In this document: positions 1,235 through 49,060 of the stretch, one piece after another
Numbering within the stretch: position 1 is the stretch's first letter
Layout of the letters: every line of letters starts with the position of its first letter
DNA from: Azolla caroliniana
Taxonomy: Eukaryota > Plantae > Polypodiophyta
DNA length: 64,000 nt
Assembly (NCBI GenBank): GCA_043228905.1
Contig: JBHGNT010000004.1
Location: forward strand, 23,250,001-23,314,000
Reading direction: 5' to 3'
Translations under genes and position numbers: made by a program
The notes under the pieces: generated by a model
Databases searched by the model: none
What the model saw: only the letters and a program-made list of their open reading frames with translations
What the model was told of the DNA's origin: nothing

Positions 1235-1673
1235 TGTTGCCGATTGGGAACATGGACTGCGGTTAGTCCTTCGATCTAGACCTCCAAGTGGGTGTGGAAC
1301 AACGAATAGGCGTCTAAGCGTAATGCGTAGGGGAATGTTCCCTGTAACCTATCAGTGTATAAGGGAGACGGCTACAACCAAATCCTTAGCAAGGGTTACA
1401 CTTACGTTCTTACATGCTCAGGTCTTCAAGACACACACACTGGATTAGCCGTAGCTATACACAGAGAATCAAAGAAGATAGAATTCTATTATGAGACGTT
1501 TCTTACATTCCCAAAATTACACGCTCCCCCTATCAGAGGTTTTCTGCCCTTTATATACGCAGGGTCTATTTAGCTGTTCACGCTTCCTGCATGAACCGTT
1601 ACATGCGTTATGATCTTATATTATTTCTTATTCCTATGCTCTTGTTCGTCGGTTACTATTCCGGCGGACAACA
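1235..1673 (-). repeat. 3' LTR of gypsy element 1 (439 bp)
   Basis: TG...CA termini; matches 10164-10558 with about 23 substitutions (counted by eye) plus a 44-bp indel. Confidence 0.95.
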
Positions 1674-1720
1674 CCTGGCACGCCTGTGGGACAGTGCCCT
1701 GGCACGTCGGACCCATCCCG

Positions 1721-4490
1721 TTAATCCTCTTCCAAAATGGCCCGGATGTTTGGGTCTGTTGCGGTGTCCACGTCCGGAGGTGACGTAGGGCCCGTAGGTG
1801 CATCGTGGTGTGGCTCCCCTGTTTGGTCGGGCTCGTTTCTCCCGGAGTCGCAGTCGTCGTGAGTGGGCGGTCCGGGTACGGTGGGCTCTTCTTGAGCTAG
1901 TGGGTTGGGCTCCGCCGTTGTCGTGCTTGCAGTCGGCTGCGGCTCTGCCTCCATTGTTACATCCTCCGTGGTGTCGGCCGTTTTTGTACGTTCCGGGGAG
2001 TGGGGCGGAGATTCCGCCTGGCTCGCACCGTTCTCCGTGTGGTCCGATGATAGCGTGGGCTTGTGCGGATTAACCTCCTCTTGTGCAGTGGTTTTGCTGT
2101 CTGGTACTGTGGGGGACTCCGCTCGTCGGTCCGTGTTGTTCTCCATCGTTGTCATTTCTGGCGATCGAGCCTGAGGTTCCTCTTCTTCAGCCGTGCCCGG
2201 AATTGGCGTCGCCCTGGATTCCTCGTTTGTGTGCGTGTTGCCGGCTTGTGTGATCTGGTGAAATAGCTCCTCCTGGCTTTCACCAAAATCATCTATGAGC
2301 TGCGCGAGTTCTTCGGAGTGTTGGTCCGCTAGCGCACGATAGTCTTGCGCTAGGTCCTCTCATACGGCCGCAATTCTCTCCTCATTTAGTTTATAGAAAC
2401 CTCGGCCGTCTTTTCGCCGGTTCTCCCAGTCCACACAATACACGTGCAATTCCGTTGCTTGGGTTGCCCACGCCATCCATCCTTTGTCCAACGCCGTTTA
2501 AAATTGTGCTATGAACCTCTCCCGATTTGTTTGGAGAAGGATACGCACGTTATCTGTGATGGCCTGGCAACGGTTGCGTGCGTCCTCCATCGACTTCTGG
2601 AGGTTTGCGATTTCTTGTTGTTTAACCGCCGCTGCTTCTTCGTACATGGCCTTCAGGCCCGCCCACAGCTGGGATTCCTTTGCATGTTGTTCTTCTAATT
2701 TCCCCATTTCATTGTTTAGGCGGATTTCGAGCTGATGCCTTCTTTCTTGTTCGACCACCAATTGCTCGTCGAACCATACCTTCTTTTTTTCTAATAAGGC
2801 CTGGAGTCCCGTGATTGCTGCCTCCGATTTCTTCGCGTCCTCTCGTAATTGGGCATTGTCATCTTTTGTCCGAATGTGCTGAGCTACCTCCGCAACGAGT
2901 TTCTCTTCAAGGGTTTTTACTGCCTTCCGGCCGTTAGCCCATATCTCCTTTTCTCTGTCTGAGGATTGGCGTAGTTCCACTCGAAGGCGGTCAATTTCTG
3001 ATTCCGCTAGTTGCATGGCCCTTTTCGCTTTTGAGGCAATGGCGGTCTGAGCCTCAATTTCTTCCTTTAAAGCGTCGATGGCGTGGTTTGGTGGCGGAGT
3101 TGCGTTGCGCCGTAGTCGCGTGAGCTTCCAACTCCGCGATGCGTTCGTTGGCTTTTTGAAGTTCAACTTGGGTCAGTTTCACCTTCTTCCAGACATTCTT
3201 ATTTTTTATGGCCATCTCCTTGGCGCCCGTGCTGACCTTTGCCAGTTCCCGATGGACTTCGACTAGTCCCGTGTTTAATGGGGGTATCTCCATCCCCACT
3301 CGGCGTACCCCGGCGTTCCTCTGTCTGCCGACCCTGGCTAACCGGTCCTCATCGTCGCTCTTCGTCGTTTGTGTTAGGGCACGCTCAATCATCTGGCGTT
3401 CTGCATGCTCTTTGGCCATTCGTTGGGCGGCTTTTACCTGTTGTTTTGCCAGGAACTCCATGAGCTCAAAAGAAGTGTCGAACTGTAAGAGGGCGTTGAA
3501 CTCATCGGCCGTATCCGGGATATCCGGATATGCCAAAACCTCGCTTTCCGCTGTCAATACGGCTTTCCCTCGTTGGGACTGGGTCGTAATGATCGGTCGT
3601 GGCTCCCGGATGATTTTGAAGGTGGTATTGGGTTCCGTAGCTGCGGAGCCATCGCCTTCGGTCGGTGTTTCTATCACCGTGGGGACGTTTTTGACCAACC
3701 CCCGCCCATCTTTCCTGTCCAATCTACGCCGTTTCGGTCTGGGGCTATCCCACTGTGTTTCGGTGTCTGGCTTTGGGGCTGCTTCCATGGAACGTGCCGG
3801 TTGTTCCTCCTGTGTTGTCCGTGTGTCTGGCTGGTCAGTAGGTGGTGTTGTCCTTGGGTCAGGTTGGGCGGGTTGGGGTTCCTCTTCCCACTCTGGGGCC
3901 GATAACTTCGCTAACCTGCGCTTCGCGGATCGGGGCGGGGGCATGGGCCGGTTGGGCTGCGGTGATGGCAGGCCTCGGGGTGGAAATAGTACCGTAAGGT
4001 ACTGTTGTATGATCGGCCTGAGCTTTTTGCCTGCCTGGTACGCATGCAGGCCTTCCCTTAATGTCGGCCCTGTGATGACCCCCCCATCGACCGCGCGCCC
4101 CTCAAAGGTATCGATAATGATGCCCACCTTCTGCTTAGGCATCCCATATGCGTTGACATGTACGCAGTCGACTTCTAGCAGGGACTTGGCAACTTCACAG
4201 AAGAAGGGATCCGGAATCTGCTTGGTTCTATAGGCCTTGGCGGAGGAGGAATATGGCCCGAAATATCACTGCAGCGCCTCTGCAGGAGGGATTTCGAAAT
4301 GCCTTTCGCCTAGCGATGACAGGTCCAACTTCTTCCGGATGGAGGAGTTGGTGATCGTGTCGATGTTAAGCTTCTTGGCGATGTCCATGGCATCCGGGTG
4401 TGGGGGTGCTTCTGCGACCCGGATGTACCCATCCAAGCGTTTCTCCACAAGCCATCGGCGTAAGGCAATAGAGATGAAGATCGTCATCGC
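1721..4490 (-). pseudogene. Extra sense ORF (~900 aa) between integrase and 3' LTR: globular N-terminus, Pro-rich region, NLS-like PRPKRRRL, long coiled coil, acidic tail
   Basis: ORFs 4266-4487 and 3054-4142 share a frame across one TGA. ORFs 2498-3166 and 1721-2155 share a frame across TAA/TGA. One frameshift near 3110. Confidence 0.75.
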
Positions 4491-4829
4491 CAGAGGAGAT
4501 TCGTGGGAAGGAGACTGGTGGTTGCGATGGGCTGAAGATGTGTGATAGGATGGAGGAGAAGGTGAAGGGGAGGAGCGATGGAAGCGTTGATAGCTAGAAG
4601 ATGAGTTTCTGTTTTGTGCAAAAAATCTTCTGTTTCCTTCTTTTTATGGCTTAGGGTTCATTGGGCGGTGAGCCATCGTGGCGCCCCGTGTTCTTGAACT
4701 AGGAGTTTGTGCATGCCTTTAGTCGTTTTAATAGTCGCTATCTTCTCCTTTTTTTTTCTTTTTTTTTTCATAACGGTTATCTACAACCTATTTTTACATT
4801 ATGGTACAAGTGGGGCCGCTCATTTAAGG

Positions 4830-7800
4830 TGCGGGTTCTCCGGCTCTATCCTGTTCGGCGGTGAATGGGTTAGGTGGCGTAGGGCCCAGGTAAGGTTTGA
4901 GCTGAAACCCATTCACCTTTTGTCGGACTACTTCCCCGGCCAACGTACCTAGTCAGAACGTGCCTTGTTCCGCTCCAATTATCCAGTATGGGCGGGTCCA
5001 GCGGAATCGTAACTTCCCCGACATATGGCCCATGTGAGTTTGGAAAACCAGCACTGCTCGACCCACGGCGAACTCCTTTTCCCTTGCGTTCCGATGTCGA
5101 TCCACAAACGCTTTATGCCGTCGCTATTCCTACTCCAACACAACCATGTTGTGGACGTGTTTTTCCCCTAGTTCGAGGAGTTGGTGGAGCCGTACCTCCT
5201 CCGACTTGGCTTCTGATAGTCGGTTTCGTACCTGAATTCGTAAACTAGGTACCTGAAATTCAACCAGCATCACAGCCTCTAACCCAAACGCTAGTCGAAA
5301 CGGTGTTGACTGTATGCTTGTTTTGTAGCTAGTTCTGTACGCCCATAACGCACTTTGTAGTTTGGTATCCCAGTCCGTTCTATTTTCATTGACAATTTTC
5401 TTCAAAATGGTCTGCAACGTCTTATTGGTGGATTCTGCTAATCCATTCGCCTGCGAATAATATGGCGTACTCTCTTCTTATGGACTACGGCGTAATGTTG
5501 TGTTAGTTCTCGAACAACCGTATTGAGAAAGTGGCTCCCCTGGTCACTGATAAGCTCAATCGGACAGCCGAACCGGCACCAGATGTGCTCGTAAAGGAAT
5601 CTGGCTGTGACCGTTGCCGTATTTTCACGTAGTGCCTTTGCTTCTACCCATTTGGTGCAATAATCCGTGGCTACCAATATGTATTTATTGCCCGTACAGG
5701 CTGCCGCCGGCGTGAAGGGCCCCACAAAATCCAATCCCCACTTTTGGAAGGGGTCTAGCGGTAATACGGGCTGGTGTGGCATCCTTGTGCCCTCCGCGGG
5801 TTGTCCCATCCGTTGACACAAATCACACTTTCTACAATACGCGGATGCGTCCTTCTGTGTTGTTGGCCACCATAAGCCCGCCTGCCATACTTTCTGGGTT
5901 GTAACGTCACCCGCGTAATGGCCGCCTGCCGTGCCGCAGTGTGCCTCCCATAAAACCGCTTCCTTCTCATCCTGTCGTACCCCACGTCGCCAAATGTCGT
6001 CACTTCCTTTGTGATATAAAACGCCTTCAACGAGGCAGAAGTGATGGCTTCGGACGGCTAGTCGTTTCTTCTCGTCCGTGCGTAATTGTGGTGGAGGCAG
6101 TCCCGTAGTCAAAAAGTACGTCATTTCCATAAGCCGCCAGTCCGGAAAGGTCGATTCCGTTCTTTCTGCTAGTGTCGCTACCCGCAGGATATCGGCGACC
6201 GGAAAATCGTCGTCATCTTTCTGTACTATTTCTCCATTCTCGAGTCTGCTCAAAAAATCCGCCACTGAGAGTCGCGTCCCTGGTCGGTGTTGGATTACGA
6301 AATCGAATTCCTGGAGCAACAACATCCACCGTGCCAATTTCCCTGTCAGGGCTTGTTTCTCCACCAAATACAGTAGCGCCGAATGATCCACGTGGAACGT
6401 GAATTTCCTTCCTAATAAATAGTGCCGGAATTTATTGATGATATAGATCATCCCTACCGCCTCCCGCTCCGTTGTGGCGTAGTTACACTCTACTGTTGAT
6501 AATTTGCGACTAGCGTAGTATACTGGCCGGTACCAGCTTGGTTCAGTGAGCTGCATTAGTGCACTTCCTATTGCTATGTTTGAGGCGTCGACGAACACGT
6601 GGAATGGCTTCACCCAAAATGGTGGTTGTACGACGGGAGCCTGTGTGAGCATTATCTTAAGTGCCTCGTAGGCCTTATCCTCCGTTGCAGTCCATTGGAA
6701 AGGAGTCCGATGTACGGCAGCACGTAACGGCGTGGCGAAGTCCGCCAAATACCGTATCATCCAACTATGCCACCGTATTTGTCCTAAAAACCGGCTGAGT
6801 GATTTGGCGTTTGTCGGAGTTTTGGCTTGCGTAATCGTAGAGATTTTGTTCGGGTCAACCACTATTCCCTCCTTGCTGACTATATAGCCTAGGAGAGTCC
6901 CGTTGGTCATGCCGAAAGCACATTTCGCGGGATTCAGGCTTAAGCGTGCGGTGCGGCAACCTTCCAGGCACAGTTGTAAGTGCGAAAAATGGTCTATTGT
7001 TCTCCCATATACCGCAAAGTCGTCTAAAAAAACTTGCATGAACGCTTGAATGTATTCCCCAAAGATCTCCGTAATTGTCCATTGAAATGTTGCCGGCGTC
7101 GTCTTTAGCCTGAACATCATGACAACTGCCACATATACTCCCTAGTCCATGACAAATGTCTTCTTTTCTTGGTCCTCGGGATGCATGCATACCTGGTTAT
7201 AGCCACTAAAGCCATCTAAAAAACTGTACATCTCATGGCCTGCGACGGCGTCCAGTACGCTATCGGTGAAGGGTAAGGGAAATGCGTCCATAATGGTGAC
7301 GACGTTTAATTTTCGGTAATCTACGCATACCCGTATTTTGCCGTTTTTCTTTGGAACGACCACTATCGGGTTAACCATGTCGCTTGTTTAACTGGTCGTA
7401 TGAACCCCGCCTTCAGGAGCTTGTCAATTTCTTCTTTCACACGGGTCGTGTACTTCGGGTTCATGCGGTAGCGGCGCTGTTGGACGGGTTTCGCGTCGGT
7501 TGCTAAATTGATCTTATGCTGATAGAACTTGGGATCTAACCCCTTCATGTCCTCTTGAGCCCAAGCGAACACATCCTTATATTCCGTGAGTAGTGCGATC
7601 ATCGTGTTTCTCTGGTCCGGCCTTAATTCCTTTGCGATGGAGAGGAAACGAGGCTTCGACTCTGTACCCATATTTACTTCTTCAAGGGCGGAAGCGGTGA
7701 CTCATCGTGAAATCTCCATTTCTCTTTTGAATGCCGCCCATGCTCTGCTAAGTTCCAATATGGACTCTGGGTTTGGTTCATAAGGCTCGTCGTGGAGAAT

Positions 7801-10141
7801 AGTGGTCGTGGCATATTCCGAGGGTGTTCGTCGAGGTATGCCTCTAATTCTGCATCCTCCACCCCAGCCAACATATTTATATCTTCTGCGTATAATGGTG
7901 TTATACCCTTCGGTTGTGGCGTGCTTCCTTCCATAGTTACGCGAACCTTGGTGCGTCCGTGTTGGAAACTGATACACTTGTGTTGCCAGTTCTGCTTGAT
8001 ATTTGCTGCCTGAAGCCATGGTCTGCCTAGAAGCATTGGGTACGCCCCTGGGGCGTCCAAGGCGAGGACGACCGCCGAGATGTCGAATCGGTGTCTGCCC
8101 ATGATAATGCCTATTTTGCGAATTAACCCTAATGGTCGTACTGAGCGGGTATTTGCCATTCGGAGCCAGAATGGGCAAGCCTCCCATTCTGAAATGCCTA
8201 ACTGCTCGCAAGTTTTCACGCTAATTACATTGACGCCTGAGCCGCCGTCGATTACGCATCCTGGAATTTCCTGTCCGTGTAATATTAATGTAATAGTCAG
8301 GTTGTGTTGATCCACTACCGGCGGTCCATTGCTAACGTCTGTAAGGTTTGTAGCGATACTCACCTCGGGTATGCCTGTCACCCGTTCTTCCATGGTCTGG
8401 CGGAAGCGTGGGACTAGCTGCAGCAGTTTCTCCATGGTTAACGTTATCTCACAGCCCGCTAACGCCTGCCAAATGGGGTCTGGGACCGGTCTTTCGTCCT
8501 CTGCTCGCTCCATTGTGTTCACGGACTTCTTCCGCATGCGTTTCGTATTTGTTGCGTTTGCTTTTTCCACCCACGCTTGGGCTTGTCGGCGTACCTCGTC
8601 TTGCGCAGCCCAATCAGCCATTTTTGTTTGCTGGCGTGTCGTGACTTGTTGCACTTCCGCTGTAATCGTATTGACAGCGGGCCCCTTTCCCTTGCGTGCT
8701 GGGCATTGCGTGGCATAATGTCCGGGTTGCTGACAAATAAAACAATGGATGCTTTATTCACCCTTCTCAGCTCCTGGTGGTGTGTGCCGCTCCACTGGTG
8801 CTACTTGCTCCTCGCGGTCTGGCCTCGTTTGTCGGAACATACGCGGTGGCTGTTGTTGGTCTCGTTGTTGTTCCTGGTGCCGCTCATCCCCCGAGCTTTC
8901 GTCGTAATGTCGGTGATCTCGATATTGCCGTGGCTTACCACGATAACCATTGAAGCCGCCCCGTTTGTTTGTCGGCCGGTGATTCTCGTAGCGCCGACCC
9001 CCTTTGGCGTAACTCGGATGTCCACGATAATCCTCGTCCTCTGGTTCGTCCTCCTCGGAATCGTTGTGATTTCGGTGATTCCGGTGGTGTCGGTCCTCCC
9101 GTGGGTTGCGATCCTTATACCGTGGTTGGTCTTCTTGCCTCCTTTGTTCAGTTCGGTGTGGTTGATGTTGTGTGTCCATGCTGCGTACTGCGGGAGTGGC
9201 TCTGTTTAACATATTGTATTCGCATTGGTCGACTATGTGAGCCTTCGAGTGGCAGATTGGGCAGTGGATTCGCATATTGCATTCCACTGCGGAATGCCCC
9301 GAGTTCAAGCAAATCGTGCACTGGATTTCTTGACGAAACTGGCGTTCCTCGTCCTGAGGTAACGCTTGTCGTAAGGAGGACATAGACAACCTTTCCTCCT
9401 CGTCATCCAACTCGAGTTGTAACGCTCGTTCAATTACCATATCCGTCGTTTCCCCTTTCACGCTATTGTTGTTGAGCGTTGCCCGGATGGGCCGGCGTAA
9501 AGCTGCCAGAAATGTTTCCCGAGCCTCGTCCTCCGCGGGGCTCCGTTCTAGTTTCCGTCGTAAATTTTGGAAACGTAAGCTGAAGTTCGCTATCGTCTCG
9601 GTCGGTAGTTGCTTAATCGTATAAAACTGTCCGAGGATTTCGCATTGTGGAACCCTCCGATGGAAGAATCGCAAGAAAGCGGACTGCAGCTGATCGAAGG
9701 TTGTTATTGCTGGTAAATCCATCTATGAATGCCAAAACGCCGCTCGCCCATCTAATGTTAACCCGAACTCCGTCATTTTTGACTGGTGTGCTACCGCCTC
9801 CGAAAGGCTCTACGCCATGTGGTTCGCATTCCAGACATTCAGGAACATGCGAATATGAGTTGCGGCGTCCGTTTCGCCGTTAAAGCGGGGGTAGGCAAAG
9901 GCCATGGTGGGGGCTGTGGTGAGCGTAGTCCCCGCGTCTCGTCGAGTTATTTGGAGAGCGAAGAATCACCTTTGTACTCACGGTAGGTAGCACTGAGGTT
10001 GCTGAGGCGAGGCTTTTGCCGTGCGCGTTCTTCTGCCTGGCGTGTGACGGGCCTTGTTATTGGCCTGTCTTGTCGTGTTGGTTCTCTGGGGGCGTCTGCG
10101 GCTAAACATCCATTCGTTGTTGCTCGTCTGTGAGAAGACAC
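4830..10141 (-). pseudogene. gag-pol polyprotein of gypsy element 1 (multiple stops/frameshifts)
   Basis: Retrotransposon gag with CCHC knuckles (8754-9722); protease IDGGSGVN (7674-8654); RT VCVDYRKLN, FLDGFSGYNQ, FLDD; RNase H VDAS, EREA, VDH; integrase HHCC, GLDFVGP, SDQGSHF (5130-7671). End coordinates approximate. Confidence 0.92.
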
Positions 10142-10163
10142 TGATCACCAAGCGTGCCAAAAG

Positions 10164-10558
10164 TGTTGCCGATTAGGAACACGGTCCGCGGTCAGTCCTT
10201 CGACCTAGACCTCCAAGTGGGTGTGGAACAACGAATAGGCATCTAAGTGTAATGCGTAGGGGAATGTTCCATGTAACCTATCAGCGTATAAGGGAGACGG
10301 CTACAACCGAATCCTTAGCAAGGGTTACACTTACGTTCTTACACACTCAGGTCTTCAAGACACACACAGTGGATTAGCCGTAGTTATACACAGAGAATCA
10401 GAGAAGATAGAATTCTATTATGAGACGTTTCTTACATTCCCAAAATTACACGCTCCCCCTATCAGAGGTTCCTATGTGAACCGTTACATGCGTTATGAAC
10501 TTATATTATTTCTTATTCCTACGCTCTTGTCCGTCGGTTACTATTCCAGCGGACAACA
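10164..10558 (-). repeat. 5' LTR of gypsy element 1 (395 bp)
   Basis: Direct repeat of 1235-1673; followed on the minus strand by PBS-like TGGCACGCTTGGTG and the gag start. Confidence 0.95.
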
Positions 10559-10650
10559 AGCAGCACATTATCAAAGATACACCTACCCCTGATAAACCCT
10601 GTTTGATTCTCATGTATGATGTCTGGTAGGTAGCTTGTTATCCACCTAGC

Positions 10651-11121
10651 TGTCATGATAACAGTCACATCATGCATCGAAAGGATCATGACACTCACGT
10701 TATGACTCGAAAGGATTTGAACCCACGACCTTGTTGTACACATGTCAAATCCTTAACCATTGTATTAATATTCTTATATGTATAGTCTCTAGAATATGAA
10801 ATCTAATATCATAGGAATATTCTATATTACTCTACATTCTAGAATGACCTAGAATATTCTAGAGTGTTCTATACCACTAGAACCTTCTAGAATACTCTAG
10901 AGATCTTCTAGATTACTCTACATTCTAGGATAACCTAGAATATTCTAGAGAGTTCTCTATTACTTATAAATAGGGATCTACCACCCATCCCAAACCTAAA
11001 TTGGTTCAACGCCATTTTGTAGCCTACTCTTTGTAATCCATTTTACGCTTCAATATAATAATTCTCTTTCAATTATCTCTCTATCTCTTTTTCTCTCTCT
11101 TTCTCTCTCTCAGTCTTGACA
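10651..11121 (+). repeat. 5' LTR of chromovirus
   Basis: Apparently identical to 21345-21815; TATAAATA at 10965-10972. Confidence 0.96.
10825..10960 (+). promoter_or_regulatory. Heat-shock element (nGAAn inverted pentamer) array in LTR U3
   Basis: Perfect aGAAccTTCtaGAAt at 10879-10893 plus aGAAtaTTCtaGAGnnTTC at ~10851 and ~10937, just upstream of the TATA box. Confidence 0.7.
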
Positions 11122-11210
11122 GTTTGAACCAATTTTTTTTCCTTTCATCTCTTCGTCTTCCACAAACCCTAACAAGTTCTCTTCTTCCTTCTCCTCTCCC
11201 CTCATAAGCT

Positions 11211-12335
11211 ATGGAGTCCGTGAGCAAACAAGAATACATGCGTGTTCTTTCTGAGCTCGACATGCTCACGAATAAATTTGTGGCATTAGAGCATGAGAAT
11301 CAAAGGCTACTTGGAGATCTACAACACGTGAGCGCCGAAAAAGCTCAACAATATGAAGAGTTATCACAGCGGGTTCATCAACTTGAGGCGACTATATTGT
11401 CATTACGAGAGCAAGCGTCGGGGGCTCAGAACTCCCCTAGAGAGCCAAAGATCAGCCTCCCTGCCAAGTTTGATGGTACGAGGTCTTTATTTCGAGGCTT
11501 TTTGAATCAAGTTCGTTTAGTTATTCAGCTACATCCCAATCGGTATCCAACTGATGCTGCTCGTGTGGGATTAGTGGGAACTTTGCTATGCGGTACGGCG
11601 TTAGCATGGTTCGCACCACTTCTCGAGAAGAAATCACCATTGCTGGAGGATTTCGAGGCCTTTGTTAAAGAGTTTCAAGCTAGTTTCGGAGACACCGACA
11701 GCACTAGGACAACGATAAACAAGATTCGAAGGCTCCGACAAGGAGATCGTCCCGCGTCGTCTTATGCAGCCGATTTCCGTCTCTTGGCATGCGATATCCC
11801 TTGGGATGAGGCAGCTTTAATGGATCAATTCCGTCAAGGTTTGAGAAATGATGTCAAAGATCTTCTTCTTACTTTCCCTGAAGATCCGAAGTCACTTACA
11901 GAAGCCATTAGTCGAGCTGTGCGATGTGATAATCGCCTATTTGAGCGACGTTCTGAGCGCCAACAAATGTTACGCCGCCAACCTGAACAGACTTACGCTT
12001 CCGTAGTCGCAACGCCTCCACAAGTTTCTAGACCCATTACAAGGGATGGCCCAACTCCGATGGAAATAGAGTCAACACAACGTCGTGGGCCGTTATCAGA
12101 TGCTGAGAAGCAACGACGTCGAGCGCATCGCCTCTGCCTGTATTGTGGTGGTCCAGGACATATAGTTGTAAATTGTCCACATAAACCAAGGCGTCAAGTA
12201 TACCAAGTAAGTGCCCATGAAAACCCTACATCGAGTTCTATTGTTACTTCTAATAACATAAATAAGCCTCATAGTCCATGTCATGAGAATAGATTCGATG
12301 TCTTGAGTCAATTAGAGGATGTGTTAAACGAGTAA
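11211..12335 (+). CDS. Chromovirus Gag (PEG10/Ty3-like capsid, CCHC knuckle)
   Basis: 374-aa ORF: [19 protein letters not shown]...[29 protein letters not shown]. Confidence 0.92.
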
Positions 12336-15300
12336 GTCCGGCCAAAATAGGAGCCATTTGGCTGGACCATCCTAGCTATGTAGAGTTAGTTCCTAGTCGT
12401 GGTTCCATTTCATCAAATCAAGTGAGTCGAGTTGTTTCAGCACAAGTCGAGCTTACCACATCTACATGTCATCGAGTCCTAGCCTCTGCCCTTCTAGATT
12501 CTGGAGCCAACTCTTGTTTCATGGATCGTGAATTTGCCTTGTCACAAAACATCCTCTTGAATAAGCTTCCCAACCCAGTAGCCGTAGGAGTCATCGATGG
12601 ACGTCCCATAGCATCAGGAGATATAGTCGAGGAGTCCGAGCCAATTAGGATAATTCTTGGCAATTTGGCAAGCCTAATCTCTTTCAATATTATTCGTAGT
12701 CCGGACCACCCAATAGTTCTAGGTCTCCCCTGGTTTGAACTCCATAACCCGAAGATTGATTGGATGGAAAGAACAATTGAGGAGACTCGGGAAAAAAGCA
12801 CAAATCCCGCATCCCTCTCTCCTACATGTGCTAATAGATCCCCGGAGTTATCGCCCATCTCTTTACGACAGTTGCGGGAGGAAGGGGGGAACGAGGCCAT
12901 GTTCGTCTTCGCAATAGTAGCAACTCCATCATCCACTTCACGTGACGCGGATATTAAACTACCAAAGAAATACAAGGAGTTTTCAGATGTCTTTGATAAG
13001 GTGAAGGCCAATACATTGCCGGAGCATCGGCCATATGACTGCCCTATTGACTTACAACCAGGGAAAGAACCTCCATGGGGCCCAATTTATAATCTTTCCC
13101 CTGTAGAGCTAGAGACTTTGCGGGAATATATTGATGAGAATCTGGCAAACGGATTCATTCGGCATTCTAGATCCCCTGCTGGTGCACCTATCTTCTTCGT
13201 TAAGAAGAAGAATGGGACTCTTCGGTTGGTCGTGGATTATCGAGGGCTAAACAAAGTGACTATCCGAAATAGATATGCTCTACCATTAATCCCAAATCTT
13301 TTGGAACGTCTCAGTGGTGCAAAATATTTCACGAAGTTGGACCTTCGCGGAGCATATAATCTAGTTCGGATTCGCCCGGGGGATGAATGGAAGACAGCTT
13401 TCCGCACTCGCTATGGACATTTTGAGTATACAGTGATGCCATTTGGTCTCACGAATGCACCTGCTGTTTTCCAACATATGGCGAACGATATTTTTCGAGA
13501 TTTTCTTGATATCTTCACTATAGTTTACCTAGATGATATTTTAATCTACTCAAAGACCCAAGAGGAGCATGATGCACATGTTCGTCAAGTACTGTGCCGA
13601 CTCCGAGAATATGGTCTCTACGCAAAATTAGAAAAGTGTAGTTTCGGCCAGAATCAAGTGGAATTTTTGGGGTATGTTGTATCTTCAAATGGTCTTGCTA
13701 TGGACCCCATGAAGGTACAGGCAATTTTAGAGTGGCAAACGCCCCTTTCAGTGCGTGATGTGCAATGTTTTCTCGGGTTTGCAAATTTTTATCGAAAATT
13801 TATTAAAAATTATTCCAAGGTTGTGCTTCCGCTTACTCAGCTCACACATAAAGATCAACCATTTATATGGAGTTCAAATGCATCCGAGGCATTCGAAAGC
13901 TTAAAACGAGCATTTACAACGGCACCTATCTTAGCACATGTCGACCCAACAAAATGCTTCATCCTCGAAGCCGATGCATCCGATTTTGCACTAGGGAGTG
14001 TCCTCTCGCAGACTGGAGATGATGGACAACTACACCCTGTCGCCTTTCATTCACGAAAGTTTGAAGCTGCAGAGATCAACTACGAGATCCATGACAAAGA
14101 GCTTCTTGCAATCGTGGATTCGTAATTCTCAGCAGATCATTGTCTACAATGATCATAAGAACCTGACTTATTTCCAAAATGCTCGAGTCTTGAGTCGGCG
14201 ACAAGCCCGGTGGGCGCAATTTTTGACTCACTTTGACTTTATCATCATATATCGCCCTGGGATGCAGCAAGGCAAAGCTGATGCTCTTTCTCGGCGCTCT
14301 TATATGGAACTTCGTCCAGGGGAACCTGCTTTTGAGCATCAAAAACAAATCCTTTTGGGTCCTAATCGATTACGATTAATGGTAGTTAACGCCATAACAG
14401 CTCTTGAAAATTCCACTCTTCTTGATTCCATTCGAGATCATATGGCCACTGATGATTTCGTCAAGGATGTTTTGGATCATATCGTCCCGGATCGTGCTTC
14501 TTGCTCACAGTCGAAAAATCCTCGTAATGACTATTGTCAGTTCTATTGGCATGATGGTTTTCTATTTCGACAAAATTTATTGTATGTTCCTGATGGTCCC
14601 CCACGGCTACAAGTTTTGCAACATTGCCATGACTCACCAATGGCTGGTCATTTTGGAGTTCACAAGACTCTAGAATTAATTTCTCGACGCTATTGGTGGC
14701 CTCGCCTTCGTCATTTTGTTGAGGAGTATGTTCGGAGTTGTGATATATGTTGTCGATCAAAGAATCCTCGTCACCGACCCTATGGCTTACTACAACCACT
14801 TCCCATTCAGGAAACACCTTGGAAGTCTATATCCTTGGACTTCATTACTGATCTCCCAGTTTCAAAAGGTTTTGATGCAATTCTCACAGTGGTTGATCGA
14901 TTTACCAAAATGGCACATTTCTTGCCATGTACAAAGTCGATTACTAGTCAAGAGACGGCTGATCTCGTTATGCGGGAGGTATTTAAGCATCATGGTCTGC
15001 CAGATGATATTATTAGTGATCGTGGTCCACAATTCATCTCAAAGTTTTGGAAGCACCTATTCAAACTTCTCCACATTTCAGTTAAGCTTTCTTCGGGCTA
15101 TCATCCTGAAACAAATGGCCAAATAGAGCGTACCAACCAGACATTGGAACAATATCTTCGTTGTTTCATCAACTATCAACAAGATGATTGGGTTGCATTT
15201 TTGCACTTGGCGGAATTCGCTTACAACAACTCAGCCCATTCTTCTACAGGATATTCCCCATTTTTCGCAAATACGGGCTATCATCCTCGATGGACGATGA

Positions 15301-15564
15301 ATGCGCATCCAGAAGTTCCTACCAACCCTGCTGCCGAGGATCGTCTTAGTCGCCTCCAAGAAATTCAAGCTAACATTCTCCACAATTTGCACGATGCTCA
15401 ATTTACACACAAGAGGCTTGCCAATCGTCATCGTTTAGACTCCTCAAAAAAGTTCCGCATTGGGGATCATGTATGGCTTCTCCAACACAACATCAAGACC
15501 ACTCGACCTTGCAATAAATTGGATTACCAACGTTTTGGCCCTTACATGATCACTGGTAAGATAA
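12323..15564 (+). pseudogene. Chromovirus Pol (PR-RT-RH-INT) in the -1 frame relative to gag; frameshifting deletion in RNase H near 14120; cut by the copia insertion
   Basis: [27 protein letters not shown], integrase HDSPMAGH...CDIC, SLDFI, SDRGPQF, IERTN. Confidence 0.92.
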
Positions 15565-15828
15565 TGTTGAAAAACAGTGCTCGGCCACAACCGAGGAATA
15601 GGATCAACTCTCAGAAAACGGGAAATACAAAGTGCACGGGGACAATAGAGAGAAAGGTACACTGGATATTTTACGTGGAAAACCCTAAATGGGAAAAACC
15701 ACGGGAGTCCTCAAACTCCAACTATCACTATGAACAGGGATGTACACTGGTGAAGCTACAAGGCAACAACCTTGAGCTCACTGTCTTCGCCACAGGCGGC
15801 GGTAATACACAGAGGCAACGACCTCTTC

Positions 15829-15897
<69 letters not shown>

Positions 15898-16219
15898 CTG
15901 CTCTCACTTCGCTCCCTCTTAGTGGAAAACAGAAAATGAGCAACAACATTTAAACTGTTTGCCCTAAGTCATATTTATACACATATGACTTTCGGGCTAT
16001 TTACAAATATAGCCTCAAGGGCTCTTGGCAAAACATATTCACAAATATGTCCCCGCATCCGGATCTCTCTCCGGGTACATTCGTCATCCGGCTCCGTAAC
16101 CGGGGTCTTCAGCATCCGGCTCCGTAGCCGGGGTATTCATCATCCGGCTCCGTAGCCGCAACCGGGCTTGCCGTCATTCATCTCCGGACATCCCATCCGG
16201 AGGGACCGAAATCCCAACA
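15565..16219 (-). repeat. Copia 3' LTR (655 bp) containing a (CT)n microsatellite
   Basis: Direct repeat of 20335-20967. Confidence 0.96.
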
Positions 16220-16229
16220 AACTCCCCCT

Positions 16230-19200
16230 TCACTTCGGCATGGGATGTCTCTCCAATCCGATCCTCTTCCGGCATGCTTCCAGCTTGTCGGGTGTGAGCA
16301 CTTTGGTCAGCATATCTGAGCCGTTCTCGTCCGTGTGGATCTTCGTCAGCACGAACTCCTGGTCTTCTATCCTTTCCCGGATCCAGTGGTATCTACGCTG
16401 GATGTGCTTCGTCCGGGAGTGATAGGCCGCATTCTTCGCAAGGTGGATGGCACTCTGACTGTCGCAGTAGAGTCGGTACTCCTCCTGCCGGATACCGAGC
16501 TCTCTAATGAAGTCCTTCATCCATATTATTTCCTTGCCAGCTTCAACAGCCGCCATGTACTCCGCCTCCGTGGTTGACAGCGCAACCGTCTTCTGCAGCC
16601 TCGACTGCCACGAAACAGCTCCACCTGCATACGTCATCACATACCCTGATGTGGACCGGCTGGTATTTGCATCAGCCGACATATCCGAATCGGTAAAGCC
16701 GTCGAATTCGGGCTTACCGGAGCCGAATCGGAGGCACACGTTTGCCGTGCCCTTCAGGTATCGGAGTATCCACTTGACCGCGTTCCAGTGCTCTTTGCCG
16801 GGATTGCTCATGTACCGGCTCACCACTCCAACTGCATATCCTATGTCCGGTCTTGTACACACCATTGCGTACATCAAGCTTCCGACGGCAGAGGCATATG
16901 GTACTTTCATCATGTCCTCCTTCTCAGCCTTTGTCTTGGGGCTTTGCTTGCTGGACAACTTGCAGTTTGCCGGGAGGGTTGTCCCGACCGGTCTTGCTTC
17001 CGACATGTTGAACCGGTGAAGCACCTTTGTCACGTACTTCTCCTGTGACAGCCACAACTGCTTCTTCTTCCGGTCCCGGATGATGTGCATCCCTAGTATT
17101 TGCCTCGCCGGACCCAGGTCCTTCATTGAGAAGGTTCGGTGAAGTGCTTTCTTCAGCATCCGTATCTTGCCCTGGTCCCGTCCGACGATCAACATGTCGT
17201 CCACGTACAGGAGGAGTATTAGAGAGTCTCCTCCTTCGAACTTCTTCACAAACACGCAGTGATCGGACTGCGTTTTGTGGTACCCTTCATCGGTCATGAA
17301 GGAGTCGAACTTCCGGTACCATTGCCGGGGAGCCTGCTTCAGTCCGTAAAGGCTCTTCTTCAACCGGCATACCAGGTGCTCCTTCCCTTTCTTCTCGAAT
17401 CCTTCCGGTTGCTGCATGTAGATCTCTTCTTCGAGGTCACCGTGAAGGAATGCCATCTTCACGTCCATCTGTTCTACCTCGAGGTCCATGCTTGCCGCTA
17501 TGCTCAGCACCGTCCGGATGGAGGTCATCTTCACTACTGGGGCAAATATCTCGTCGAAGTCGACGCCCTTCTTCTGCTGGAACCCCTTCACCACGATCCT
17601 GGCTTTGTATCTCGGGGGGTTTCCGGCATCTCCCGGTTTCAGCTTGAACACCCACTTGTTTCGAAGTGCCCGCTTTCCTTTCGGCAACTCCACAAGTTCA
17701 TATGTGTGGTTCTCATGCAGGGAATCCATCTCCTCCTGCATGGCACTTAACCACCTGCGGCTATGGGTGTCAAGTTTTCCTTCTTCAAAACTCTCCGGCT
17801 CCCCCTCGTCGGTTAGCAACACGTGCTCTGGTTCCGGAAATCTCCGGGGGGGCCTTCTCTCTCTTAGAGGGTATCTCCGTTCCGGAGCTTCGGTAACCGG
17901 CTGCTCCGTTTCCTCTTCATCCGAATCCATTTCGGGATCAGGGCCGGTTCCGGTATCAGTTTCATCTTCCTTGGCCGGTTCTGTTTCTTCACCGTCTTCG
18001 GCCGGATCCTCGAGTGCTAACCGGTCCCTTGCCGGTCGGGACTGCTCCTCGTAGAGTTTATCCTCACCGGTCGACTTGGAGCTCTTCATCTTCTTCTCCG
18101 ACTCCCAGTCGGCGAGTGTCTTGTCCTCCATGAAGATGATATCTCGACTCCTGAATATCTTCTTGTCGACCGGGTCCCATACTCGGTAGCCGAACTCGTC
18201 GTCGCCGTAACCGAGGAATATGCATGGCCGGGTCTTTGGATCTAACTTTCCTCTCCGGTCCTTTGCCACATGCACGTATGCGAGACACCCGAACACCTTC
18301 AGATGCCGGTAGGACACTTCCTTACCGGTCCACACTTTCTGCGGCGTGTCTCCGTCCAAAGGTACTGAGGGTGATCTATTTATCACATACGTCGCCGTCG
18401 ACATTGCCTCAGCCCAAAATCCCTTGGGTAATTTCGCATGCGCCAGCATACTCCGGACCCTCTCCATTATGGTCTGGTTCATCCTCTCGGCCAGCCCGTT
18501 CAGTTCCGGCGTCTTCGGCACAGTAAACTCGAGCCGGATTCCCTTCGAGCGACAGTACTCCTGGAACTGCCCCCGGTATTCCCCTCCGTTATCCGCTCGT
18601 ATCGCTTTCAGCTTCTTGCCGGATTCCCTTTCCACTCTCGCGTGGAGTTCTTTGAAGACGGACAACACTTGGTCCTTTGTCTTCAACGGCGCCGTCCACA
18701 GCTTCCGGCTGTGATCATCAATGAAAGTCACGAAGTACTGGGCTCCGCCATGTGACTTCGTTTCTACTTGACACACGTCAGTGTGCACCAGCTCCAATGG
18801 TGCGCTACGTCTCGTCGGTGGCCTTGAGTGGAAGGAGGTCCGGTTTTGCTTACCGGCCAGGCAGTCGGTGCACTTCTCCAGGTGCACATGCTTCACTGGA
18901 ATAAGGTTGTCTTCTGCAAGCCTCTTCATCCCCTTCTCACTCATGTGGCACAGTCTCTTGTGCCACAGCTCACCGGCAGTGTCGGCTGCCACGTTTAGCT
19001 CCTCCGGACATAGCCGGGAATTCATCAGGTACAGTGTGTTGACCTTCCGGGCCCGAGCCACTATCAGGCTCCCCTTGCTGAACTTCATGACACCGTTCCG
19101 GATGCTACCCGTGTAGCCTTCATCATCTAGCCTCCCGGCCGAGATCAGGTTCAATCGGACCTCCGGAACGTGTCGCACATCCTTCAGCAGCATCTTGCAT

Positions 19201-20303
19201 CCGGTTGATGTCATCAGCCACACGTCTCCTATGCCGGCAATCCGGCATGTGCCTTCATTTCCCATCCAGACACAGCCGTGCTCACCGGTTGTGTAGGATG
19301 AGAAGTATTTCTTCTCCGGGGTCAGGTGGAACGACCCTCCGGAATCAACCACCCAGGTCATCTCTACACCGGCAAGGTTCAGCTCCCTCTCTTCGGTAAT
19401 GAGCATGATTTCTTCCTCACTTGCCGCGAGTGCCGTCGTTCCTTTCCGGTCCTGCCCTCGCCAATCCGGACCTCTCCGGTCCGTGGCTCCCCGGTATGCA
19501 CCGTTTCTCTCCGGTGACTTCTTCGAATCGGTGTCGTCGGCTCCGTTGTCCTTTCGGTAATGCCGACAATTCTTCCGGAAGTGCCCCGGCTTCCCACAGT
19601 GGAAGCATGTGGGCCTTCCTCTTGACTGCGACCGGGTCCCCGACTTCTCCCGTCTTTGCGGACTCCGGTTCCATTGTCTTCCCCGATCCGATTCGGTAAG
19701 CAGCATCTTCGGATCGGAAACCGGTTCTTTATCTCTCCGACGCGCTTCTTCGTTCAAAATGCTTGTCTTTACCGTTTGTAGAGACAAGTTATCTTCGGTG
19801 CAGGAGGTGCTGAGAGTCACCACCAAGTTCTCCCAGCTTTCCGGCAATGTACACATCAGAATGATGGCTTGCATTGCATCCTCCAACGGGAACTTGATCG
19901 CCGCAAGCTGGTTCACGAATCCCATGAACGTGCTTACGTGTTCCACCATACTCTCGCCGTCCCGGTACTTGAGGTTCACTATCTTCCTCATCAGGGAGGT
20001 CCGGTTCAACGCATTCTTCCTCTCGTAGAGGCCCGACAGCTTCCTCCACATCTCATATGCGTTGGTGTCGTTCGCCACGTGTTGTAGAACGCTCACGTCG
20101 ACGTATTGCCGAATGGTTGCAACGGCTTTCCGGTTCAGAAGCCTCCACTCCGTCTCAAGTACCCCCTTGGGTATTTCCGACCTGTCGATCGGTTCATACA
20201 GGTCCCGAACAATGAGCAGATCCTCCATCTTTATCTTCCAGTCGGCGTAGTTCTGCGCATTCAGCACCATCATCCCCGGCTGCCCGCTGCTGCCGCCTTC
20301 CAT
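16230..20303 (-). CDS. Copia gag-pol polyprotein (~1357 aa, start MEGGSSG)
   Basis: Uninterrupted ORF: CFHCGKPGHFRKNC, VVDSGGS protease, WHKRLCH/CTDC, integrase HTDVC...DNGGEY...AERMN, RT YVDDML, RNase H FTDSD/EAEY/CDSQ. Confidence 0.95.
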   Translation of the reverse strand: MEGGSSGQPGMMVLNAQNYADWKIKMEDLLIVRDLYEPIDRSEIPKGVLETEWRLLNRKAVATIRQYVDVSVLQHVANDTNAYEMWRKLSGLYERKNALNRTSLMRKIVNLKYRDGESMVEHVSTFMGFVNQLAAIKFPLEDAMQAIILMCTLPESWENLVVTLSTSCTEDNLSLQTVKTSILNEEARRRDKEPVSDPKMLLTESDRGRQWNRSPQRREKSGTRSQSRGRPTCFHCGKPGHFRKNCRHYRKDNGADDTDSKKSPERNGAYRGATDRRGPDWRGQDRKGTTALAASEEEIMLITEERELNLAGVEMTWVVDSGGSFHLTPEKKYFSSYTTGEHGCVWMGNEGTCRIAGIGDVWLMTSTGCKMLLKDVRHVPEVRLNLISAGRLDDEGYTGSIRNGVMKFSKGSLIVARARKVNTLYLMNSRLCPEELNVAADTAGELWHKRLCHMSEKGMKRLAEDNLIPVKHVHLEKCTDCLAGKQNRTSFHSRPPTRRSAPLELVHTDVCQVETKSHGGAQYFVTFIDDHSRKLWTAPLKTKDQVLSVFKELHARVERESGKKLKAIRADNGGEYRGQFQEYCRSKGIRLEFTVPKTPELNGLAERMNQTIMERVRSMLAHAKLPKGFWAEAMSTATYVINRSPSVPLDGDTPQKVWTGKEVSYRHLKVFGCLAYVHVAKDRRGKLDPKTRPCIFLGYGDDEFGYRVWDPVDKKIFRSRDIIFMEDKTLADWESEKKMKSSKSTGEDKLYEEQSRPARDRLALEDPAEDGEETEPAKEDETDTGTGPDPEMDSDEEETEQPVTEAPERRYPLRERRPPRRFPEPEHVLLTDEGEPESFEEGKLDTHSRRWLSAMQEEMDSLHENHTYELVELPKGKRALRNKWVFKLKPGDAGNPPRYKARIVVKGFQQKKGVDFDEIFAPVVKMTSIRTVLSIAASMDLEVEQMDVKMAFLHGDLEEEIYMQQPEGFEKKGKEHLVCRLKKSLYGLKQAPRQWYRKFDSFMTDEGYHKTQSDHCVFVKKFEGGDSLILLLYVDDMLIVGRDQGKIRMLKKALHRTFSMKDLGPARQILGMHIIRDRKKKQLWLSQEKYVTKVLHRFNMSEARPVGTTLPANCKLSSKQSPKTKAEKEDMMKVPYASAVGSLMYAMVCTRPDIGYAVGVVSRYMSNPGKEHWNAVKWILRYLKGTANVCLRFGSGKPEFDGFTDSDMSADANTSRSTSGYVMTYAGGAVSWQSRLQKTVALSTTEAEYMAAVEAGKEIIWMKDFIRELGIRQEEYRLYCDSQSAIHLAKNAAYHSRTKHIQRRYHWIRERIEDQEFVLTKIHTDENGSDMLTKVLTPDKLEACRKRIGLERHPMPK

Positions 20304-20334
20304 TTTCTGTGTTACCGTCGCTCTGATACCACTT

Positions 20335-20598
20335 TGTTGAAAAACAGTGCTCGGCCACAACCGAGGAATAGGATCAACTCTCAGAAAACGGGAAATACAA
20401 AGTGCACGGGGACAATAGAGAGAAAGGTACACTGGATATTTTACGTGGAAAACCCTAAATGGGAAAAACCACGGGAGTCCTCAAACTCCAACTATCACTA
20501 TGAACAGGGATGTACACTGGTGAAGCTACAAGGCAACAACCTTGAGCTCACTGTCTTCGCCACAGGCGGCGGTAATACACAGAGGCAACGACCTCTTC

Positions 20599-20645
<47 letters not shown>

Positions 20646-20967
20646 CTGCTCTCACTTCACTCCCTCTTAGTGGAAAACAGAAAATGAGCAACAACATTTA
20701 AACTGTTTGCCCTAAGTCATATTTATACACATATGACTTTCGGGCTATTTACAAATATAGCCTCAAGGGCTCTTGGCAAAACATATTCACAAATATGTCC
20801 CCGCATCCGGATCTCTCTCCGGGTACATTCGTCATCCGGCTCCGTAACCGGGGTCTTCAGCATCCGGCTCCGTAGCCGGGGTATTCATCATCCGGCTCCG
20901 TAGCCGCAACCGGGCTTGCCGTCATTCATCTCCGGACATCCCATCCGGAGGGACCGAAATCCCAACA
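20335..20967 (-). repeat. Copia 5' LTR (633 bp)
   Basis: Adjacent to the Met PBS; shorter (CT)n tract. Confidence 0.96.
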
Positions 20968-21352
20968 GATAAGTGATGTTGCATTTCGTCTTGACCTCCC
21001 TCCGCACATGCATCTTCATCCGGTGTTTCATGTATCCCTTTTGGAACCTTATACTACAAGTTCAATTCCGGGCCGTCTTACGACACCCCCACCACCTGTC
21101 GAGTTCTTGGACGGGCTTGAATTTGAAGTTGCTGCCGTTCTCGATTCTAAAATCGTGCGCAACAAGTTGTATTACTTGGTCGATTGGCTAGGCTATACCC
21201 CCAATGATCGAACTTGGGAACCTGCCACAAATCTTTCCAATGCTGCCGAACTCGTCAATGCATTTCATCGCCAATATCCTTGTAAACCAGGTCCTAATAC
21301 AAACCCTACGACCCGTGAGACGTGTCGTCGAAAAAGGGGGATAGTGTCATGA
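20968..21352 (+). pseudogene. Chromovirus Pol C-terminus: GPY/F remainder and chromodomain
   Basis: Continues TGKI-SDVAFRLDLPPHMHLHPVFHVSLLEP after TSD removal; chromodomain EFEVAAVLDSK...YYLVDWLGY...TWEP. Confidence 0.9.
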
Positions 21353-21815
21353 TAACAGTCACATCATGCATCGAAAGGATCATGACACTCACGTTATGAC
21401 TCGAAAGGATTTGAACCCACGACCTTGTTGTACACATGTCAAATCCTTAACCATTGTATTAATATTCTTATATGTATAGTCTCTAGAATATGAAATCTAA
21501 TATCATAGGAATATTCTATATTACTCTACATTCTAGAATGACCTAGAATATTCTAGAGTGTTCTATACCACTAGAACCTTCTAGAATACTCTAGAGATCT
21601 TCTAGATTACTCTACATTCTAGGATAACCTAGAATATTCTAGAGAGTTCTCTATTACTTATAAATAGGGATCTACCACCCATCCCAAACCTAAATTGGTT
21701 CAACGCCATTTTGTAGCCTACTCTTTGTAATCCATTTTACGCTTCAATATAATAATTCTCTTTCAATTATCTCTCTATCTCTTTTTCTCTCTCTTTCTCT
21801 CTCTCAGTCTTGACA
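21345..21815 (+). repeat. 3' LTR of chromovirus
   Basis: Preceded by PPT, followed by TSD CTAGC. Confidence 0.96.
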
Positions 21816-23283
21816 CTAGCTAGGACTTTTGTGAGTATCTTGTATATTGTGTTAAGGATCGTGATTGGACGCCATTGGCACAACTCGAGGCTTCGCCCTA
21901 CCGCTTTAGGGATGAGATAGATCATCCCCTCTGTCAAGCCAGTTGGCATCGCTCCTAAGGACCAAATCTCCTGAATCCCGACTTCCACTGACGGGATAAC
22001 AGTTTCCAATGAATCTCAAAAAAAACTCATGAGAGACCATTAGGGCCAGGGCATGCTCCTCTCCGCAAACCCCTAAGTGCCTCTGAGAGTTCTAATCGAG
22101 AAATGGGGCTATCAAGTACAACTTCCATCTCATGGGTGACCTTGGGGTGAATGCAAGCCATCACTCTCTCAGCCAGCTCCGTGTTTTGCTGCAGATGTAT
22201 AGGTGCGAGCAGGTCGCGATAGTATTGTGTTGTCATATGCAGAATCTCATCCTTGTCCTCCGTTATTGAGCCATCTAGTTTGCGCATCCCTTGTATATGT
22301 CCACCACCACCCTTTGGTGCCCTGGAGTGAAAGAAATGACGGTTGACCTTGTCGTCTGTTCTAGCCCACCATGATGCGGCCCTTCGAAATAGCATGCGGT
22401 TCTTCTCCAACGTCCTTTCCCGCAGCTTCAACTTTGCTTCCTCCAGCTTAGCTCTAGACCAATTGCAGCTAGGGTTTGCTTGTAGCAATCGTTGTGCGGC
22501 CGCAACGGACTTCCGTAATTTTGTTTCAATGGCTCTAGCATGCTGGAGGGCCAGCTTGGTTTCCTATTGTAAAAAGGAGGAGAGGGCCAGTTTCTTCTGC
22601 AAATCCTCACTGGCCGATTCATTTACAATGGTCTCCCGCCATATGCTCTGCAACCCTGCTTTCACCTTTGCATTCTTCATGATCTTTGTGGGGATTTTCA
22701 CAATGAGACTCCGCTTGCTACCGCAGGGTGGGTTAAGGTCTAATCTCATCGGCTAGTGATCTGAGAAGGTAAGACCTGCCAAGATAGCGAAGGAGCCCCC
22801 TAGCTCTTCGAGGGACAAGTTGATGTATATACGGTCTAGTCGCGCAAGACTACCACCCCTAGCATTCACTACAGCTCAGGAGAAGTGTAGCGAATGTGGT
22901 CATCTCCTAAGGGAAGAGCCCCATGTATCCTTCACCCCAATTTTCCCAATTAGGAAAGCCCATGAGTCCAACTCCGCACCATGAAGCGGTCTTTGGGTCC
23001 CCCCTTTCCTATCTCCCAGATGCTCAGCCATGTTGAAATCTCCGGCCATTACCCACGCCTCTGCATCAGGCAATATTGTCGCTAACATGAACACGAAGGT
23101 ATGTGCACATGAACATGAAGGTTGTTGAGACTTTAGTGAAAGTCTAAGTATGTGTACGTAAAGGTTGCTCTTTTTGAGGTCACTAAAAGCTTGAGAGTCA
23201 TTTTTCATTATTAAAATCTTGATGTCAACCATAAACATTAGTGAAGTGAATGTTACACTTAATGTGTATCCTATGAAAGCTTT

Positions 23284-44100: not shown

Positions 44101-49060
<4,960 letters not shown>

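Follow-up and report, generated by a model that had tools for sequence, protein, structure and literature searches.

Retroviruses and Ty3/gypsy retrotransposons share long terminal repeats (LTRs), a gag-reverse transcriptase (RT)-RNase H-integrase organisation and a tRNA-binding site inside the 5' LTR, and in both a primer site just before U3 fixes the LTR edge (available sections of PMC5371799, PMC12789967 and PMC13191261). The element described here, an LTR retrotransposon at positions 1235-10558 of a stretch of Azolla caroliniana DNA (contig JBHGNT010000004.1; the whole stretch of 64,000 nucleotides is referred to as the window), resembles them in these traits. It differs in that the site before U3 is not purine-rich, as a polypurine tract (PPT) would be, but is an inverted tRNA-binding site.

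Split tRNA-binding sites are known from Ty1 (bipartite primer-binding site, PBS), Ty3 (5'/3' PBS) and HIV-1 (primer activation signal), where the acceptor strand and the T-arm of the tRNA are paired with a loop between them; all known sites of this kind are in genomic RNA and serve minus-strand priming, whereas the second site of the present element is on the antisense strand at the start of the plus strand (PMC5371799 and PMC13191261, as far as their accessible text goes). The gypsy element of Drosophila is also a Ty3/gypsy element with tRNA-binding sites near both ends, but its 3' site is on the RNA, pairs with the anticodon and T-stems instead of the CCA end, and is dispensable for cDNA synthesis (excerpts of PMC1635307). 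Helenus terminal-repeat retrotransposons in miniature likewise contain tRNA-derived sequence within an LTR element; there it forms a promoter within the LTR, the elements retain their PPT and, according to the author, no priming role is involved (part of PMC10886601). A tRNA site replacing the PPT was not found described in the open literature searched, subscription papers and Repbase being outside the search, which accords with the view, expressed in a preliminary description of this DNA, that no plant family with this layout is known. The tRNA-complementary site in the place of the PPT is real, conserved across a clade and apparently undescribed.

Structure of the element and its inverted 3' site

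The element is flanked on both sides by the 5-bp target-site duplication AGCAG, and gag-pol is on the minus strand. The window copy is decayed, with an LTR divergence of 5.8% (23 mismatches per 395 aligned bases) and broken frames. Its features are given below as window positions, strand and description.

1230-1234, no strand: target-site duplication AGCAG, left (LTR comparison)
1235-1673, minus: 3' LTR, 439 bp, TG...CA ends (LTR comparison)
1550-1557, minus: TATA-like box TATATAAA within the 3' LTR, same strand as gag-pol; absent from the other LTR through a 44-bp deletion
1674-1675, plus: 2-nt spacer between LTR edge and tRNA-complementary site
1676-1692, plus: inverted primer-binding site at the PPT position, 17 nt against tRNA-Arg(UCU) nt 76-59, one tRNA base looped out (bacterial stand-in tRNA)
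1694-1705, no strand: 4-bp hairpin splitting the 3' site
1707-1716, plus: complement of the tRNA T-loop and 5' T-stem strand (nt 58-49)
1721-4643, minus: extra open reading frame (ORF) in gag-pol direction, in four pieces in the window copy; no Pfam family, no membrane segment
5130-9722, minus: gag, zinc knuckle, RT, RNase H (D-E-D-D kept) and integrase in Ty3/gypsy order, with stops and frame changes (Pfam)
within 5130-9722, minus: protease, without Pfam match, read by eye from the ORF at 7674-8753
10122-10126, minus: CGAGC (CGAAC in relatives), complement of tRNA T-loop nt 57-53, past the 5' hairpin
10129-10140, minus: small hairpin beyond the 5' PBS
10146-10159, minus: 5' PBS, 14 nt against tRNA-Arg(UCU) with two G-U pairs (stand-in tRNA)
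10160-10163, minus: 4-nt spacer CTTT between 5' LTR and PBS
10164-10558, minus: 5' LTR, 395 bp, TG...CA ends; TATA box gone with the 44-bp deletion
10559-10563, no strand: target-site duplication AGCAG, right (LTR comparison)

On the minus strand the 5' junction reads CAACA-CTTT-TGGCACGCTTGGTG (10159-10146), and on the plus strand the 3' junction reads CAACA-CC-TGGCACGCCTGTGGGAC (1676-1692), so that both motifs were recovered, one per strand, where they had first been reported. The pattern of LTR end, 2-5 nt and TGGCACGC had one occurrence on each strand of the 64 kb, two in all, and was not obtained in any of 100 shuffled sequences. No tRNA gene was found in the 64-kb window.

The last 15 sense bases ahead of the 3' LTR are 60% purine, and the longest purine run within 30 nt is 4; two other LTR elements of the window gave values of 93% and 80% purine, with runs of 12 and 10. 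Because these two have normal tracts, the absence of a PPT belongs to the 1235-10558 element and not to the genome or the test; the earlier observation of a missing PPT is thereby borne out.

A 41-nt block begins two bases inside the 3' LTR, the antisense strand of which is complementary to the 3' end of tRNA-Arg(UCU). The stand-in tRNA-Arg(UCU) used for comparison was taken from a bacterial genome (L122), and a second one from a phage contig. The block of the window copy pairs with 26 of the 28 nt at the 3' end of the bacterial stand-in, which may differ from the host tRNA. In antisense order, the block consists of 17 nt, an A, a 4-bp hairpin and a TCG.ACCCAC-like stretch; the 17 nt pair with tRNA nt 76-59, one tRNA base being looped out, and the final part pairs with nt 58-49. 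The pairing spans the acceptor strand, T-stem and T-loop of this real (stand-in) tRNA, and the duplex energy of 3' sites with the tRNA was -44 to -52 kcal/mol (RNA parameters, stand-in tRNA). The hairpin splits the site at tRNA position 58/59 (numbering read from the stand-in), and m1A58 is a known stop for the copying of primer tRNA (accessible part of PMC13191261).

The 5' PBS starts four bases inside the 5' LTR on the sense strand; its pairing with the tRNA covers 12-14 nt, and beyond it are a hairpin and the T-loop complement CGAAC. The 3' site is the mirror of this split design on the antisense strand. Both sites, and their tRNA-Arg type, had been recognised beforehand, the type now being matched to tRNA-Arg(UCU) by way of the bacterial stand-in; the T-arm match past the looped-out hairpin and the same design at the 5' end had been missed. 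A second TGGCACG at 1700, noted previously, proved to be not another primer site but an arm of the small hairpin, the sequence of which differs in relatives. A conserved palindromic dimer signal at 1694-1705 was also considered and rejected lineage-wide, other families having other stems.

Conservation in the family and the lineage

Family contigs, defined by at least 80% likeness to the window element, were mapped from four public runs of four studies (two organism labels and a leaf metagenome). The region 1625-1765 was covered by 1405, 1159, 1449 and 238 contigs, the 3' site was retained in family contigs of all four runs, and mapping to the whole element gave full cover in all of them. Within 1674-1692, 10 of the 19 positions were without variant at a threshold of 3%, and the others varied by at most 10%, except for spacer base 1675 (14-22%) and base 1685 (10-31%, toward the tRNA match). 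Position 1699 in the hairpin was read as A in about two thirds of the family depth. Divergent subfamilies depart from the reference before 1643 and past 1715-1719, and the block between is shared. Loose ends at the LTR edge were found in at least 15, 9 and 3 contigs with low agreement, as expected of the flanks of other copies. One contig in each of three runs goes on from the LTR end 10558 (joint to 9034) with CC-TGGTAG.., which possibly represents a related family with another inverted site.

More distant relatives were taken from metagenomes as the best 80 of 498 confirmed stretches of a pol scan. At least 600 nt past integrase were available for 28 loci; no LTR edge could be located in 21 of them, which are for this reason uninformative and not negative. 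The inverted site was present in all nine loci reaching the 3' LTR (L002, L003, L005, L006, L013, L029, L048, L066 and L009, the last of which ends inside the site), whose pol identity is 66-81%. The LTR edge was checked by 5'/3' LTR comparison for the window, L006, L001/L002 and L020/L029. A PPT was absent from all nine sequences scored (53-60% purine, longest run 3-4), and among the nine sequences whose LTR edge is visible, the spacer between edge and 3' site measured 4 nt in L048 and 2 nt in the other eight. The decayed state of the window copy would fit an artefact of assembly or a rearrangement confined to this copy, but this is refuted by the site being present in contigs of four runs from four studies and in nine related loci, and the target duplication is clean; the probability of such an origin is negligible, and the layout is that of a family and lineage.

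The 3' hairpin is formed by five different stems in ten sequences, all fully paired and with compensatory changes. In an arm permutation control, 1 of 120 permutations reached full pairing, a figure to be read with only five distinct stems in use and with the arms parsed by a script that favours pairing, MAFFT having misaligned them. The loop is only 2 nt in two copies. On the sense strand, the order PBS-hairpin-CGAAC was found in eight of eight aligned sequences; three pairs of the 5' hairpin hold in all eight, one with a compensatory change, and the consensus energy is only -0.57 kcal/mol. A search of seven loci against Rfam gave no tRNA or other family apart from one chance match.

The extra ORF is a single frame of 954-977 codons in five relatives (L002: 6958-9885), with its stop 28-115 nt upstream of the tRNA-like block. 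It has no Pfam family above the cut-off and no membrane segment and is therefore not env-like. L048 is without the extra ORF, and its 3' site is still present.

In a quick, midpoint-rooted tree of 59 chosen rows (35 of 120 proteins, 23 loci and the window copy; no curated references), the site-bearing sequences were on five branches of one 22-row clade with a support of 100. This clade is nearer to liverwort proteins than to Athila-type proteins of flowering plants, and its nearest named proteins are from liverworts. Viral contigs yielded no relative by protein; 40 pattern matches among them, none with a pol match, were taken as chance.

Priming of the plus strand

Judged by the sequence features, we incline towards a second host tRNA that anneals to the minus-strand DNA and primes the plus strand, which fits best among the options considered in the preliminary description. 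Sense RNA would be made from the LTR, where a TATA box is seen on the sense strand, and a tRNA on the 5' PBS would prime the minus strand as in the standard pathway. Past the first jump, RT would copy the 3' block and RNase H, whose residues are seen, would remove the RNA. The freed minus-strand DNA would expose its complement of the 28 nt at the 3' end of tRNA-Arg(UCU), to which this tRNA could anneal; the first 10 nt are predicted to be unpaired and may act as a toehold, the remainder would swap strands with the tRNA T-arm, and the hairpin would be looped out opposite tRNA position 58. RT would then extend from the tRNA CCA via the 2-nt spacer into U3, fixing the LTR edge, after which RNase H would remove the tRNA and integrase would trim the spacer, in keeping with the observed geometry.

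In the established pathway it is the plus-strand primer that sets the LTR edge (PMC5371799 and PMC12789967, in the text available); a 3'-OH is therefore needed two bases before U3. The split design shared by both ends supports tRNA binding at the 3' site, because the strand on which the tRNA binds the 5' PBS is not in doubt. In predicted DNA folds, the first 9-10 nt were unpaired in seven of nine full sites. A precedent for the general scheme is given by hepadnaviruses, in which an RNA primer anneals to a complementary site on the finished minus-strand DNA; this primer is a translocated piece of viral RNA, unlike a host tRNA.

Box TATATAAA is on the sense strand in six of eight LTRs, and an antisense TATA-like box is present in two of eight; the window copy and 45 of the 56 loci scored retain the RNase H acidic residues D-E-D-D. 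Given the mostly sense position of the box and the retained residues, the polarity is likely to be standard and the RNase H active. A dead RNase H as the cause of a primer change was ruled out on the same residues.

The position of the boxes also bears on template polarity. If an antisense transcript (or either strand) were the template, the 3' site would be the minus-strand PBS and the 5' site would prime the second strand; both strands would still be tRNA-primed, and the polarity alone would differ. The 3' site is indeed the better tRNA match (17 + 9 nt versus 12-14 + 5 nt) and has the usual 2-nt spacer, and the base that it lacks relative to the tRNA is no obstacle, because Ty1 and Ty3 do not regenerate the PBS from the tRNA (PMC5371799, relevant part); an argument on template polarity from this base was dropped for the same reason. 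However, the boxes favour the sense strand, and gag-pol and the extra ORF are both sense. We keep this option, which had been put forward previously, as a rival and consider it improbable.

Where stem positions deviate from the tRNA match, the change is C-to-T opposite a G of the tRNA in 9 of 11 cases. Counted as 7-8 independent C-to-T events versus one G-to-A, they give P = 0.06-0.10, which is not significant alone. Such a bias, tolerated as wobble on the antisense strand only, would favour antisense tRNA binding and is suggestive only.

The same positions are relevant to the idea that the element's own RNA is the primer. RNase H would cut the sense RNA just past CCA, reading the CCA end like a tRNA-DNA junction, and the tRNA-like fragment would be a non-purine PPT. 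This would make a second tRNA unnecessary, and the fragment would be fully complementary; the RNase H acidic residues are intact in most loci as given above, the sense RNA is able to fold the T-stem in several copies, and PPTs have no common consensus and can contain pyrimidine (available portion of PMC3185511). What it leaves unexplained is the tRNA likeness out to nt 49 across families with unalignable LTRs and flanks, as well as the break at 58/59 and the matching design of the 5' PBS. Each of the three T-stem departures gives a G-T pair on the antisense strand, where the sense fold would have an A-C mismatch, and the pyrimidine content of 40-47% is far from that of known PPTs. Moreover, the 5' strand of the acceptor stem is absent: the bases preceding the T-stem copy were found by inspection not to be conserved, so the sense RNA would be unable to form a tRNA-like minihelix. 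Priming by the element's own RNA is rated as unlikely, albeit as the main rival.

A further proposal of the preliminary description was that the 3' copy pairs with the 5' PBS, circularising the RNA or self-priming the minus strand. In L013, an Arg-UCU-type 3' site is followed by one LTR and then by a PBS of a different tRNA type (TGGCGACC), presumably that of another tRNA-Arg; the assembly of this locus runs across a single shared LTR and may combine related families. The two unlike ends are seen separately in L007 and L009, which belong to the branch of L013, and the other-type 5' PBS of L007 (48-90) and L013 (925-967) has a 6-7 nt spacer and the same hairpin and CGAAC. Because the ends of this sub-lineage match different tRNAs, with an end-to-end pairing energy of only -7.4 kcal/mol in L013, they argue against end-to-end pairing. 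The ends of the Arg-UCU families can pair with -21 to -25 kcal/mol, some incidental pairing may occur, and Ty3 and Drosophila gypsy join their RNA ends, albeit via a tRNA bridge (PMC5371799 and PMC1635307, in part). However, the tRNA forms a more stable pairing with the 5' PBS than the element's own 3' copy in five of five Arg-UCU-type elements (-27 to -29 kcal/mol), the ends do not co-vary (position 9 mismatch in L002/L003), and the plus strand would be left without a primer. We therefore regard end pairing as very improbable.

Several points weigh against plus-strand priming by a second tRNA. The support is sequence comparison; Logan contigs reveal neither ends nor strand. As to sampling, 78 of the 80 loci are from one assembly series and are hence not independent as to host, and the nine-locus count leaves out the sister-branch ends (L028, L072 and P0005-P0008). 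The stand-in tRNA was retrieved with a pattern to which the 3' site had contributed, which in part builds the T-arm match into the comparison. Relative to the tRNA, every 3' site lacks one base, and pairing requires a bulge. Hybrids of tRNA and DNA 17-26 bp long are RNase H substrates in their own right, and the tRNA must compete with the element's own, fully complementary RNA. In the family variant depths, the skew of C-to-T versus G-to-A in the site did not exceed that in the adjacent LTR.

On balance, it appears fairly probable that the clade has abandoned the PPT and primes both strands with host tRNAs at two mirror-image, hairpin-split sites, some families using two different tRNAs; the symmetry may let the transcript of either strand serve as genome.

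Affiliation, surroundings and implications

By its sequence traits, the element is a member of a non-chromovirus Ty3/gypsy lineage: two TG...CA LTRs with a target duplication, the gag, RT, RNase H, integrase order and a PBS after the 5' LTR were found, and only the PPT before the 3' LTR, which is usual but non-classifying, was absent (nine of nine sequences). No Pfam match to an additional, archaeal-type RNase H (aRH) was obtained in nine element ORFs, four long relatives and the extra ORF of L002. For lack of this domain the element is not Tat (TatI-III, Ogre, Retand; Neumann 2019), and the initial Tat/Ogre label was abandoned, although a tRNA-Arg PBS and a 5-bp target-site duplication are shared with Ogre, TatIII and part of Retand. 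With Athila it shares the 5-bp duplication, the absence of an extra RNase H and an extra ORF 3' of pol; it differs in its PBS (tRNA-Arg versus tRNA-Asp/Asn), and in the quick tree its pol is placed apart from the 14-row group (support 100) to which the Athila-ORF1-bearing P0078 belongs. Neither Phygy (4-bp NCGN duplication, tRNA-Trp PBS, no extra ORF) nor Selgy (4-bp duplication, tRNA-Ala PBS, about 5 kb) fits the element.

The absence of the additional RNase H is shared with the Tat Z1/Z2 branches, which have no aRH (Biryukov and Ustyantsev 2023). Likeness to Athila and Tat Z1/Z2 together extends to the lack of a chromodomain match and of an extra RNase H, the 5-bp duplication, the extra ORF after pol and a pol identity of 38-44% (available text of PMC6317226, PMC10508981 and PMC13468544). 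Membership in the aRH-less Tat Z1/Z2 branches is possible, and the liverwort nearest proteins are compatible with it; the sections of the Tat Z1/Z2 papers available (PMC10508981, PMC13468544) are without any mention of PBS or PPT.

Two further LTR elements with normal PPTs are present in the window. The second Ty3/gypsy element (10651-21815, plus strand, target duplication CTAGC) shows no TGG-type PBS after its 5' LTR and is perhaps self-priming; we take it to be perhaps Tcn1-like. Nested in it is a third element (15565-20967, minus strand, target duplication GATAA), which is probably Ty1/copia and whose PBS is presumably of tRNA-Met type. RT-bearing fragments at 310-1234 and 22027-22563 (minus) are apparently one LINE split by LTR-element insertion. 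An intact pentatricopeptide repeat (PPR) gene of 932 codons with E and DYW domains is located at 27414-30212 (plus), its top-identity named match being in a fern (48%), which by itself makes a fern the probable host. Other host gene pieces are ATG13 (33855-34829), an RRM protein (45755-46459) and a receiver-like ORF near 52596-53162. A direct repeat of about 770 bp at 52448-53805 surrounds 100 N (53035-53134) and is likely an assembly overlap at the gap, and an array of 68-72 bp repeats occupies 42424-43300, with an inverted copy nearby.

Variation is known for the priming of the minus strand, but plus-strand priming from a PPT is regarded as a trait that retroviruses and LTR retrotransposons have in common. 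A successful clade of high copy number that lacks the PPT breaks this rule regardless of which primer turns out to be used, and judging from the sites at its ends, the plus-strand priming route of the element is likely new. Where an annotation tool depends on finding a PBS and a PPT, such elements may be given the wrong orientation or be lost. The clade offers a natural system for how RT and RNase H choose the plus-strand primer and how the LTR edge is set, and it suggests that a PBS module can be copied as its mirror image and put to a second use.

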